Source: Eledone cirrhosa
Lineage: Eukaryota
Assembly (NCBI GenBank): GCA_964016885.1
Contig: OZ024740.1
Coordinates: 90,644,001 to 90,708,000 of the forward strand
DNA length: 64,000 nt
Direction of reading: 5' to 3'
Positions 4,592-60,329 of this stretch are shown piece after piece (position 1 is the stretch's first letter; every line of letters begins with the position of its first letter). The translations under genes were made by a program, and so were the position numbers. The notes under the pieces were generated by a model that saw only the letters and a list, made by a program, of their open reading frames with translations, had not been told where the DNA came from and made no database searches.

Positions 4592-5198
4592 GTAGGAGGT
4601 GAGTTTTATTGTAGTACAATAAAGCAATGCAGATATTGGATAAGAAGCACTCTACAGTTTGTAGGACTGGAGTATACATAATATAAGATCAAAAGATGGT
4701 TAAAGGAGTTCCATGTATTTTAGTATGCGCATTTCAAAACAAACATCATCATGCAATAATATTTGTGTTTTCATGAGATAAAACAGGAGAACATGATATG
4801 AAGGCTAATTTTCGCTAATTTTCAAATTCTTTTAATTCATACATTATCTTCCAACGGTTCTCAACCTCTCTATGTAAAACAATATATCTTCTCTCAGTTA
4901 TAAAAACTATCTCTTTCTCTCTATCACCCATCTCTCCCTCTCATCTCCTCCCCTTTATTCATCCTTTCCACCCCCCCTCTCTAAATAAAATATTTTTCCC
5001 AATATCACACATCAATCTAAAACCACTTTTCATATGTTGATTTAAAACTGCACTATCCACAAGTGTTTTTTAGCCTTCATATCATGTTCTCCTGTTTTAT
5101 GTGATGAAAACACAAATATTATTGCATGATGATGTTTGTTTTTGAAATGCGCATAATAAAATACATGGAACTCCTTTAACCATCTTTTGATATTATAT
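4592..5198. mobile_element. Fold-back pLTR element with mirror HHRs
   Basis: Inverted arms ~4682-4808 and ~5070-5198; HHR-like 5095-5161(+) ttttat GTGATGA..GAAA tgcgca TA ataaaa and 4718-4783(-) with CTCATGA; flanked by (TA)n. Confidence 0.8.
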
Positions 5199-5567
5199 TA
5201 TATATATATATATATATACACATATATATATATATATATATAAATATATATATATATATATATATATATATATATATATATATATATATATATGTATATA
5301 TATATATATGTATATGTATATATATATATATATGTATATATATATATATATATATGTATATATATATATATATATATATATATATGTATATATATGTATA
5401 TATATATATATATATATATATATATATATATATATATAAATATATATATATATATATATATATATATATATATATATATATATATATATATATATATATA
5501 TATATATATATATATATATATATATATATATATAGAGAGAGAGAGAGAGAGAGAGAGAGAGAGAGAT
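5193..5567. repeat. (TA)n/(GA)n microsatellite
   Basis: Direct inspection. Confidence 0.95.
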
Positions 5568-5699
5568 ATGTTGCATAAAGACATGATTTATGATATATTG
5601 CTCTGATTATTTAATTTATTAATTCGTCATAGAGCCACAAAGTGACCGGTTGCAACATATATATCTATAACTTTATGTATATGTAAACCTTTATATTTA

Positions 5700-6245
5700 A
5701 TAATCTCCCGTTAGGGTGAGATAAAATTTGGCGTTTTTGGCTGCGCTTTCTAGCAACAAGCCTACCCGCCGTAAGCAACCAATGCCATTCTTTCTAACTT
5801 GACCACTGCCAAATTGCGGTTCTTAGCCATTTTTTAATCTAATTTTGGCGCGATCACTTTGGAAAACTAAGTGTCTAATTTTGAGTTTGTCTCCCGATGA
5901 ATCCGAAATCTGGGCATTTCCTATTAATTGGATGTTTAAAAATACGGATGAAATCATGGTAGAGATATAATTACGGTATGTACACATTTGTTCTGAGTTT
6001 GAATTCACACCTAATTGTGTATAGTTGATGGTTTATTTAGTCAGTTTCTACATGCTGTAGAAATGTTGGATACATACTCTATTGGGGCCTCCGCGATGAG
6101 GCCACTCTCGGTTATTTGTCGGAGATTTCTTCATAAGAGCCTTTATTCTTATAGCTTGGTCTGATTGATTTTTTATATGGTTAATTATGCTGATTGGGAG
6201 AGGAAATGGTATATATTTTATCTAATAATTCTAAAGACATAATTT
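5700..6245 (+). mobile_element. Interspersed repeat related to the 35371-36145 element, ending at (TA)n
   Basis: gggagaggaaat..atatattttatctaataattct at ~6196-6230 matches ~36083-36121; cttagccatttt is the reverse complement of aaaatggctaag at ~35818. Confidence 0.5.
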
Positions 6246-6640
6246 ATGATATATATATATATATATATTTATATATATATATGTATATATATATATATAT
6301 ATATATATATATATATATATGTATATATATATATATATACATTTGTATATATATATATATATATATATATATATATATATATATATATATATATACATTT
6401 GTATCTATATATATGTATATATATATATTTGTATATATATATATATATATGTATGTATATATATATATACATTTGTGTATACATATATATATACATTTGT
6501 GTATATATATATATATATATGTATATATATATATTTGTATATATTTATATATATATATATATGTATATATATATATATATATATACATCCGTATATATAT
6601 GTTTATATATATGTATATATATTTATATATATATATATAT

Positions 6641-56674: not shown

Positions 56675-56748
56675 TCACCTGACGAGATCAGTGATAATCG
56701 ATCATGGCAAGAGGATCGATGTATCTCTTATTGAAACATGTGTCGTGA
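56675..56748 (+). ncRNA. Type-I hammerhead ribozyme with GUC cleavage triplet
   Basis: tcac CTGACGA [long stem II] GAAA catgtg TC gtga. Confidence 0.82.
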
Positions 56749-56940
56749 TTAAAATGATTGGACATTTATACCATGGATTCGGATGTTTATTTTGATACAA
56801 ATACTCCGTTTTACATCATCTACCTGTTCCCATAAATGGAATTGGAGATATACAAAAGCATGGAGAATTTAATATTGCTAACAAAAATGTCATTGGACCG
56901 CTTGACACAACCAATAATACACCTTACTATATATATATAT

Positions 56941-59900
56941 TGTTATGCTTGGGGAGGGTCATATTGTTGTAATAATATTGCCAGAATCAATAACAGAACA
57001 CACTCACTGTTTGGTTGGTTTTCGCTTCTCTATCTTTTATATCAGTTAATTCATTCGGTCCTCAATGTTTACCATTGAATGACCAACGGTCAAAAATACA
57101 GATATTATATAGACACAAACACATATATAAATATATAGTCTAAAAAAGTTCTTACCTTGAACATCTGCAACATCGTCAGTGGTGCTATTATGTCCCTTAT
57201 GTTGTATTGTATATCTACGCCATCTTTTTTTTATGTGTTTATTTATTTACTTATTTATTTTTTGTCTTCTCTGCCCATGCGTTTGCGTGTGTGTATATTG
57301 TTCGCATTTGGGCGACTGTATTTTGGTTATTGTATTATATATTAGTTTACTAGTGTGTGTTTATATGTGTTTGTTGTTATTGTGCTTGTGTATATATTTA
57401 TTTATATTTCTCTTAAGTCAGTATTGTTTGTTTGGGTGTTGTTATTATTCAATTCATTTTTTTCTATTTAGCTTTGGTCTTCTTATTTCTATTTCGCTGG
57501 CCTCTCTGATTTGCCTATCTGCTGGGTCATTTCTATGTTTAGATATTATTTTAATGTCTATGCTGTCTATGTTACCGTCATGTTGTTGTCTGGCGTGTTC
57601 ATATAATAGTGAATCGTTTTTTCGTCCTTTTAGTTACCCCAGTGTTGGTCTATCCTTTCACCTATGCTACAAGCTGTCTCGCCTATGTATGTTGTTGTCA
57701 TGTTTCTGCATGTACCCTCTGCACACCTTATGCTATAGACTACGTTTCTAGTTTTACTTTACATATAATATATTTCCTATTAGTACAGTGGGTTTTCTTA
57801 AAAGGGTATGTTTTGCTGATCTGGGATTTTATGGTATTTCCTGGCTTTTTTACCACCTTAAACTTTAAGTGGGTCGTACTCAGGGCCTTTCTACACTGGT
57901 TAGCTAATTTCCCTCCAGGGGTAGCTTCCACGAACATGATGCTATGGTATCTCTGGTTGTCGTACCATGAGGTATCGTTCCCTATATTTTGTTTAGAACT
58001 ATCTAAGATATTCCATGATTTGCTCCTGTATAATGGGCAAATTCCTTTCATATCCAGTTCTATGAGGGTCTTATACTTCTCCGTGGCTCCTTCGTATACT
58101 CTGATTCTCTATCTTTGGTTGTAGCCAGAGAAATGCATGCGGTTAATGAAGTGTTTGATGTGTCGTTCCATTTCTGTTGGGTCGCATATGCGGGACACGT
58201 TCTTCATCACTCATACCATGCCTGCGATCATAATATTAAACTTAGCACTACTGGACATTGATGAGTTTTTGAGTATCAGGTATTTGGAATCCAAGGGTTT
58301 AGCGTAGTGTGAGTGGAGAATTTGGTCCCTCACGCCTATTGTCTTAATCCAGAGTTCCGTGTCTAATACATGTAGTCTATTGTTATGGTGTTTGGAAGGG
58401 TAGTCGATAGTTACAGTTATACTCTGGGGTATGGAATCTGCTGGATGCTTTCCATTGTGCTGCATTCTAAATCATACTTCTTAGTACTCTTTTGTGCGGG
58501 TTTTCTTATTACTGTGTTAGTAGCGTCTACGTAACGAGAGTACATAATGAAGTCTATGGAGGTCTCATCAAGGAGATATTTGAGTCTCCTTTCCCACCAT
58601 AACATAGAAAGTTTGGCAACGTCACCAGCTATGCGGACGCCAATCGCCGCTCCCTTATTTTGGGTGTAGATCTTCTCGTTGAATTTGTATATGTGGCCCT
58701 TTAGGGTAGTTTTAATATTAGCCCCTATTGCATGTGCGACCATTCTTCTTACGTGATCATTGTCTTCGGGGGTCCGTATGGTTTTGGTTCACCCATCCAC
58801 CTTGCCATGGGAGTCTTTTTCGCCATTGAGGTTATGGTGGGGGGTGGTCTACTTCTTATGGGTCTACTGGTGCAGAAACGTCTAAGGTCATGGCTGTCTA
58901 GGTAGTCAGTGTCATAGGTAAGTCTAAGTAGGAGGCCCAGTTCATCTGTGTCGAGGTTGCAGAACTCCACCTCACTCTCACTGACCATCTCCAATCATTT
59001 TCCCACGGCAAAATCATTGTTAATGGATGGGGATAGTGATACCACGTCCATACCGTCTATTATGCAGTTATATAGGTTTTTGTTTTTGTTGCATTCATTG
59101 ATTCTGCTGAGGAGGTCCTCTGTACTGTCATATACATCTGGGAACATCTTGAGTCTGGAACGTATAACCATTGAGTGAATGTAGGAGATCCTGTAGTTGC
59201 TAGCGACATTTCACCGTATACAGGTCTTGTTGGTGGTCCTGTTCTCGGGTCGTCGACATCTTATGGTCTTTGCGGAGCCCATACAAGGGTGGTATGTCAT
59301 TGTTAGACGCCTGGAAGACGTTGGCAGTGCCTCTGCTTGGCATTAGGATGTCGGTCCACGTCAACATGCGAGCGTTGAGGATCTTCTCTCTCCTCTCATG
59401 TATTTGCTGTGTAATTTTGCTCGTCTTGGTGATGTGGGTTTGCATAGCCTTGATGTTGTTCAGCATGCTGTCTATTGACATACTACCAGACTTATCTGTG
59501 GGTATACATAATACCTCACCTTCCCTTTTTCGCTGCTTGAGGCTAACTAAGGCTTCTACAGGTTTCCTCCCGAGATGTTGGACATCTGGTCTGCTTTGTC
59601 TCTTAGTATATCCGTCTACTGTTTTGTCATCTATTTGTTGTGGTATACAAACCTTTTTATTAAAGGGTAAACTCGGAGAATAAATTTTACTCATTTGATA
59701 TGTTTTGTCAGCTGGAATGAAGAATAGTTTCTCTAAAGGGTTGTCATTATGTCTATCGTCATAGTTGTGTGTTTTGATATTATTGTTATTATGGTTCTTG
59801 TTATAAATTCTGTCAATATTATTACAACAATATGCCCTCCCCAAGTATAACAATATGTGTTTCGACGCAAGATTTCATATCAAAAGCCACGAAAAGCAAA
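56941..59900 (-). mobile_element. Divergent PLE (RT + GIY-YIG), disrupted, with inverted termini
   Basis: PPLYGLRKDHK, GAAIGVRIAGDVA, YSRYVD, LHVLD, HYAKP, FVEATPGGKLA, TYIGETACSIGERIDQH; 56941-57000 inverted at ~59795-59853. Confidence 0.85.
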
Positions 59901-59947
59901 TATATATATATATATTTAAAAGAATAGAGGTGTAACACACAAGTTAT

Positions 59948-60329
59948 TATATATTGGTAAACGGAATAGAAAATGCTGACAAATTGTTCACAGTTTAAAA
60001 TAGTTTAATTAGGAATAAGTGAGAATTAGTAATTGTATTGGCTAGTATTCAGTTTTGATTTTAAGCTTTACCGGTTGCGCATTTCTAATGCTTTTCAAAA
60101 ATAATTTTGAGATAGAGCGTCCGTGATGTTTGCCCTGATCAGAGCAAACATCACGGAAGCTCTATCTCAAAATTATTTTTGAAAAGCATTAGAAATGCGC
60201 AACCGGTAAAGCTTAAAATCAAAACTGAATACTAACCAATACAATTACTAATTCTCACTTATTCCTAATTAAACTATTTTAAACTGTGAACAATTTGTCA
60301 GCATTTTCTATTCCGTTTATCAATATATA
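59948..60329. mobile_element. Spacerless ~190-bp-arm palindrome made of pLTR-like ends with mirror variant HHRs
   Basis: Axis at ctga|tcag (60138/60139), few mismatches; TTGAAAA gcat-tagaa-atgc GCAA ccgg TA aag at 60179-60211 and mirror ~60066-60098. Confidence 0.85.

Follow-up and report, generated by a model that had tools for sequence, protein, structure and literature searches.

Introduction

Insertions of Penelope-like elements (PLEs) often come with a neighbouring copy that is inverted and 5'-truncated, and with a tail that is confined to one end (PMC8557442; PMC3846280). In the published insertion unit of endonuclease-bearing (EN+) PLEs, inverted 3' ends lie head to head with a one-sided tail, the junctions are palindromic, insertion takes place into (TA)n and tandem copies occur (Craig et al., 2021, PMC8557442; Arkhipova et al., 2013, PMC3846280). 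The second of these accounts treats the tail on one inverted pseudo-long terminal repeat (pLTR) as optional and reads the junction palindromes as self-priming (PMC3846280). Here we describe seven inverted structures found in 64,000 nucleotides (nt) of Eledone cirrhosa DNA (assembly GCA_964016885.1, contig OZ024740.1, positions 90,644,001 to 90,708,000, forward strand), hereafter the window, which is part of a 3.0-Gb assembly, with abundant TA, CA and GA runs. These structures are real, non-random and largely known, as their architecture is the already published PLE insertion unit. We judge, at a probability of roughly 0.7, that they represent truncated insertions of several endonuclease-bearing PLEs into TA microsatellite, each with two head-to-head 3' ends of which one is tailed, and likely built anew each time.

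For the PLE protein of Anolis Poseidon PAc, in vitro work describes cleavage and extension of both strands of an AT-rich target and reverse transcription from two start sites that bracket the tail, and a dimer is predicted (Frangieh et al., 2024, PMC11167929). The insertions described below would resemble this system in these respects; the cited parts of the PAc account give no explanation of inverted insertions and pair no start site with each end. Paired hammerheads on opposite strands, 100-700 bp apart, have also been reported (PMC4209133), and the cited parts of an octopus repeat annotation mention neither palindromes nor hammerheads (PMC13282606). A literature search on twin priming and fold-back in PLEs, with most subscription papers and Repbase outside its scope, returned nothing relevant by title beyond PMC3846280.

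Seven outward pairs and their ends

A preliminary description of the window, made from its sequence alone, proposed that unrelated sequence families share one outward inverted architecture, and all seven structures that it named are present, labelled here families A to G, each with its arms pointing outward. One arm of each structure stops at a TA run and the opposite arm extends into a tail (families A to F; the right end of G is short and unclassified). At the flush point, all seven families have a TA-containing stretch. With regard to target-site duplication, both flanks are TA runs.

Family A (4592-5198), a PLE 3' end with Hydra-type motifs, consists of a tailed left arm (4592-4808) and a longer, flush right arm (4811-5198), with 97% identity between 4688-4808 and 5070-5191 in a self-BLAST comparison. 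Its tail of about 90 nt (4592-4681, minus strand) has the same end in tailed copies among 30 loci. Self-BLAST also gave the arm identities of families B (93%, 13570-14442), C (88%, 36217-36459), D (98%, 59959-60318) and G (95%/89%); the shorter arms of E and F were inspected directly in the sequence. Family B (13563-14568) is built from an ORF-less tandem unit of 523 nt, ORF denoting an open reading frame, and is flush at its left end. Family C (36211-36532) is a near-symmetric palindrome of a PLE 3' end with Hydra-type endonuclease motifs, flush on the left and tailed at 36466-36532, and family D (59915-60325; tail 59915-59953) is a palindrome of a Neptune-type PLE 3' end, folded at the junction hotspot of its family. 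In family E (52140-52439), a PLE 3' end with a Neptune-type linker, the left arm is flush and longer, and the tail occupies 52381-52439. Family F (52471-52642) is a minimal insertion with its tail at 52471-52550 and a flush arm that lacks 23 nt between short direct repeats, and family G spans 35249-36143.

The tails consist of sequence shared within each family and measure about 90 (A), 121 (B), 67 (C), 39 (D), 59 (E), 80 (F) and 122 nt (G), compared with 30-40 bp in published PLEs. The preliminary description had spoken of a unique tail of 30-90 nt: the one-sidedness held, the uniqueness to each locus did not, and its boundaries were too short in B and G, where the tails measure about 121 nt (14450-14568) and about 122 nt (35249-35370).

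The pairing of one tailed with one flush end extends far beyond the window. Over all fetched loci of the seven families, 154 of 161 classifiable outward pairs combine a tail with a flush end. As most of these pairs had been picked with tailed queries, unselected sets were counted too: among classifiable bystander pairs the rule held in 25 of 27 (p 2.8e-06), and among pairs found with arm-only queries in 16 of 19 (p 0.002). Exact end patterns occur 3,075 times for C and 8,034 times for D in the genome, and a position-ordered sample was drawn from them (the first 100 listed ends per search, pairs less than 10 kb apart, at the start of one contig). Every outward pair in this sample was tailed at one end and flush at the other (C 17/17, D 30/30, 47/47 in total), over spans of 145 bp to 7 kb; since an exact match is needed at both ends, the sample favours young copies. 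The pairing is far beyond chance. A tail that published PLE work calls optional is here a near-absolute rule in inverted pairs, and the layout is, as judged from sequence, one stereotyped integration product across unrelated families, as had been proposed.

Further material of the same kind lies in the window. An extra outward pair of E type is found at 56925-59899, with a flush left arm, a tailed right arm and a PLE ORF piece at 59203-59874 (minus strand). Lone-arm pieces of F and E lie beside other elements (13387-13548, 16575-16631 and 52762-52806), and PLE stumps accumulate within the same TA runs.

Parent elements of the arms

The preliminary description had taken the arms for PLE 3' ends, and upstream ORFs for a reverse transcriptase (RT) and an endonuclease uphold this for A, C, D and E. 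The flanks of 30 A loci lead upstream into an ORF with DKT, YRDD, CxCx5C, CxxC and CxH motifs. By motif, this family carries the marks of the Hydra clade set out in section 11 of PMC8557442, namely DKT, the CxCx5C linker, CxxC, CxH, the lack of CCHH, a TA target and a canonical hammerhead. The parents of C and D were traced in twenty 9-kb stretches, and for C an upstream ORF with YRDD, CxCx5C and CxxC is likewise of Hydra type by motif. Both A and C thus resemble the Hydra clade in the C-terminal endonuclease, the CxCx5C linker, CxxC, the canonical hammerhead and the TA target, with DKT and CxH seen in A; unlike in that clade, their 3' regions are long and microsatellite-rich, and the placement is by motifs (PMC8557442).

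For D, the upstream ORF matches RVT_1 (E 2.7e-07) and GIY-YIG (E 6.9e-06), both above the Pfam cut-offs, and at two loci (L193 and L195) the arms are contiguous with it. This ORF has a CX2-5CxxC linker followed by a C-terminal GIY-YIG domain with two core cysteines, and of 100 listed D arms from the subfamily seen in the window, 84 run on into a longer element. The E arms lead into a Neptune-type endonuclease with the linker and one clear core cysteine, and at six listed loci the upstream ORF terminates about 380-390 nt short of the end of the arm. In the order of RT, CX2-5CxxC linker and GIY-YIG domain and in their microsatellite target, D and E resemble Neptune-type PLEs; unlike these, neither yielded a canonical hammerhead, and they too are placed by motifs (PMC8557442). 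Families A, C, D and E are therefore read as 3' ends of longer PLEs with RT-endonuclease ORFs, an assignment made by Pfam for D and by motifs for A, C and E.

Broken ORF pieces of PLE-like RT are also present in the window at 2628-3989 (minus), 18463-21352 (plus), 24492-25307 (minus) and 53727-54254 (plus). The segment 17441-18457 recurs at 22413-23429, and the two copies flank one such broken RT ORF piece, as expected of pLTRs.

Junctions are mostly particular to each locus

The preliminary description left it to be checked whether the same fold-back junction recurs at independent loci or is unique to each, and the answer is mostly locus-specific junctions, with a hotspot in D. Among the 17 C pairs, spans lie between 145 bp and 7.1 kb and each occurs once. 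In D, 12 of 30 pairs fold at one site, six of them with identical span, and the centres at this hotspot differ by a few letters. No majority column specific to one arm was found in 30 C or 29 D palindromes, in which subfamily variants are present in both arms. Arm-only queries for C and D also returned solo arms and variable spacers. Both had seemed to be fixed families because nearly all of the best-scoring 40 candidates of each were full length; their fixed-length look arose because hits were ranked by score, and the idea of fixed junctions was dropped after the arm-only and position-ordered searches. The suggested non-autonomous class of their own hence gives way to a continuum, with the short palindromes at its low end and pairs of up to 7 kb, including ORF-bearing arms, at the other. 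Some arm haplotypes were seen in minimal palindromes only, in a comparison that is biased, as the long copies were chosen by likeness to the window.

Two loci retain a record of how the arms are related. In one D palindrome (L351, G000:C1:22189114-22189603), both arms contain a piece of a tRNA-Met gene in the element's sense, 98% like a gene on another contig (G000:C3:334506524-334506661) with the trailer included. The fold lies at the tRNA 5' end, where the flush arm retains 4 nt of the leader and the tailed arm does not, and this tRNA junction is found nowhere else in the genome. At another locus (L357), a private deletion is present in both arms and only there. As two genome-unique rearrangements thus occur in both arms, one arm was likely copied from the other. 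The longer arm is not fixed: among the 47 position-ordered pairs the arms are equal within 10 nt in 17, the flush arm is longer in 17 and the tailed arm in 13. In family F, a 23-nt deletion specific to the flush arm was considered and rejected, since it lies in the tailed arm at 17 loci and in the flush arm at 17.

A model of insertion and its rivals

Four families (A, C, D and E) have PLE parents, the ends follow the tail-plus-flush rule, junctions vary and locus-private features are mirrored; from these observations we infer a mechanism in which the PLE protein would nick both strands of a TA run and the template RNA would be primed in two places, the tail end and an internal TA-like site that would form the flush point. 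One complementary DNA (cDNA) would extend until it stalls or reaches the RNA 5' end, then fold back and copy itself, and the fold-back copy would join the cDNA at the opposite target end; either primer may yield the long strand. Hotspots like that of D would be explained by short transcripts that begin within the pLTR. Twin priming or a template switch at an internal TA site had been suggested, and two priming sites are the best reading. A tail-primed strand folding back alone was rejected, as it would not fit the longer flush arm in 17 of 47 pairs, barring later inversion or deletion. The hammerhead cleavage site was also tried as the fold point and rejected for C, where the centre sits upstream of the motif. 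As the captured tRNA is sense to the element, it fits a cDNA fold-back on a sense template, whereas the self-priming proposed earlier was on an antisense template (PMC3846280).

Several observations weigh against this model. Among the 161 classifiable pairs, five are flush-flush and two tail-tail, and 10 further pairs were unclassified; 10 of the 47 position-ordered pairs were classed as complex when arm lengths were compared. Pfam gave no match for the four protein pieces of A and C, the RVT_1 match of E is under the Pfam cut-off, and parent ORFs were not found for B, F and G in 1.5-kb flanks (up to 9 kb for 10 B loci). A copy's nearest arm was its own partner in no more than 4/11 C pairs and 10/15 D pairs, in a test that omitted pairs in which one arm was short, deleted or interrupted (6 in C, 15 in D); later mutation would explain this low rate, yet it limits the test. 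One-arm variants exceed mirrored ones in C (46 vs 22), later repair or conversion between arms could mirror variants too, a later inversion could swap which arm appears longer, and mirrored private rearrangements were tested in two cases only (L351 and L357). At family A, the locus-specific junction is bridged by no listed read or contig.

This last point would also be expected if the palindromes were assembly or library fold-back artefacts, as the preliminary description allowed, which we regard as barely credible: flanks differ between loci and the tail is one-sided at each, the centre of D is spanned by a contig of run X1 (which may be the assembly's own sample) with at least 31 letters to either side, and in the raw data of two other samples flush ends (757 and 788 reads) appear along with a small number of other fold-back joints. 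The sharp ends in TA runs, the long inverted repeats and the lack of an identified parent for B, F and G are features that DNA transposons could share, whether miniature inverted-repeat transposable elements (MITEs) or Helentron-type elements with asymmetric inverted repeats. Members of a family of MITEs or other DNA transposons with terminal inverted repeats have one fixed length, bear these repeats at both termini and have a transposase as partner. Here, spans run from 145 bp to 7.1 kb, the tail is one-sided, arm lengths vary continuously, the partner is an RT, and A, B and C bear hammerhead folds; the continuation of the A, C, D and E arms into RT-endonuclease ORFs refutes a DNA transposon for these four, and it is very improbable overall.

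Two further alternatives accept more of the evidence. The arms may share the PLE origin and have been reverse-transcribed separately from two RNAs, the cDNAs then being joined by microhomology, with mirrored variants owed to a shared source locus or to later conversion. Arm lengths that are often unequal, short overlaps at the junction and the extension of both strands in vitro (PMC11167929) would agree with such a course, but it fits poorly with a tRNA capture and a deletion that are each unique in the genome and present in both arms, and with 17 of 47 pairs being symmetric within 10 nt at differing positions, so that we hold it to be unlikely. It is also rather improbable, slightly more so, that ORF-less short palindromes multiply themselves, as whole units or through a one-arm transcript refolded in each cycle. 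The D hotspot, with its six pairs of identical span, the haplotypes seen in minimal palindromes only (among long copies chosen as stated above) and the lack of an ORF in B point in that direction; against it stand the absence of any inherited column specific to one arm, centres that differ letter by letter even at the hotspot, the C pairs with no repeated span, and the continuation of most listed D arms of the window's subfamily (84/100) into a longer element. An extension of the two-primer model is offered tentatively, and we think it more doubtful than not: PLE integration could be an obligatory two-primer fold-back that works in trans on short RNAs and mobilises B, while transcripts from the tailed-arm pLTR of D mini-palindromes could regenerate a fresh palindrome in each cycle, so that a non-autonomous lineage would renew itself without ever being copied whole.

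Hammerhead motifs

The arms had been described as ribozyme-bearing, with a hammerhead in both arms of A, B, C and D. A strict type I descriptor gave three matches in the window and none in each of 30 simulated windows, and one alone of the three falls in the reported elements, in the left arm of C (36241-36303, minus strand), where the type I motif is intact with a stem I of 9 bp and a long stem II. The copy in the right arm of C (36373-36435) has a C3U change. In A, both cores are mutated: the type I fold of the right arm (5093-5163, plus) has its core C3 changed to G, and the mirror copy (about 4716-4785, minus) its G5 changed to C; reads from other A copies have C at 5101. One intact motif is common to 29 of 50 A arms, and a shared type I motif is found in 75 of 131 C arms. 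The type I hammerhead-like fold of B (14314-14397, plus), with a palindromic loop III, has a mirror on the minus strand with its core at 13690, and matches the relaxed descriptor only, owing to a C.A pair that closes stem II (24 of 66 arms).

The canonical descriptor matched none of 132 D arms. A non-canonical motif at 60171-60212 (plus), with a U3.A8 core, GCAA for GAAA, a stem II closed by G-C, a palindromic loop III and a stem I of 3 bp, is a predicted hammerhead-like variant conserved in family D, its U3.A8/GCAA/palindromic-loop pattern being found, in a loose form, in 100 of 131 arms; U3.A8 is a published hammerhead covariation (PMC4209133). The descriptor matched none of 52 G arms and, as scattered matches only, 2 of 103 E arms (the window copy keeps half of the core and stem II only) and 3 of 68 F arms. 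None of the 25 Rfam matches on the excised elements was a hammerhead, and neither was any of the 150 matches listed, out of 191, for the whole window; the matches were sub-threshold hairpins of microRNA type only. A type I hammerhead in the pLTR is thus a feature of A and C, and of B with a relaxed stem II, at family level, and no canonical motif characterises D, E, F or G; of the hammerheads claimed for both arms of four families, the C left arm has an intact one. The opposite strands of the motifs in two arms follow from the arms being inverted copies, and hence are no separate evidence.

Two observations concern sequence outside the seven structures. A strict-descriptor hammerhead with a palindromic loop III lies at 1204 (plus), outside the reported elements, and another fold-back family at 8340-9060, with relatives at 6644-9665 and 15137-15512, has a canonical type I motif at 8895 (plus).

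Family B, a retrozyme-like tandem repeat

Family B consists of an ORF-less unit of 522-523 nt in head-to-tail arrays of up to 10 whole units in a row, inside which no ORF of 150 amino acids was found, and its tail in the window (14450-14568) corresponds to the first 121 nt of the next unit. Among 10 B loci, six have an inverted flush end with the 121-nt tail at the other end, one has a very short inverted stub and three are without an inverted arm. B is plausibly a true non-autonomous element, and as such an exception to the by-product reading. It resembles the metazoan non-LTR retrozymes (LTR, long terminal repeat) in having a tandem unit that lacks an ORF and holds a single type I hammerhead fold (PMC7229834), and likewise non-autonomous Chlamys elements such as MRC1 (PMC8557442). 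It differs from retrozymes in its unit of 523 nt, as against about 170-400 nt (PMC7229834), and in carrying the tail/flush signature of PLEs, which the cited parts of that work merely propose as candidates for mobilisation, if strong ones (Cervera and de la Pena, 2020, PMC7229834).

Other repeats in the window

Further inverted repeat pairs lie at 53390-53655/56526-56792 (91%) and 61111-61334/61866-62090 (98%), and degenerate tandem repeats, about 66% alike and possibly coding, at 50672-51956.

Significance

What these insertions add to current knowledge is the strict pairing rule, the mirrored tRNA tracer and family B. Such PLE stumps could be mis-annotated as MITEs or as microRNA hairpins. 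How PLEs build this layout is an open question named in PMC8557442, for which this genome offers thousands of events, with a pairing rule that is near-absolute across two PLE clades. The tRNA transcript captured in both arms of one palindrome serves as a natural tracer and favours a cDNA fold-back. The PLE signature of family B adds genomic support, at the level of sequence, to the published suggestion that PLEs may be the mobilisers of animal retrozymes and of retrozyme-like repeats.

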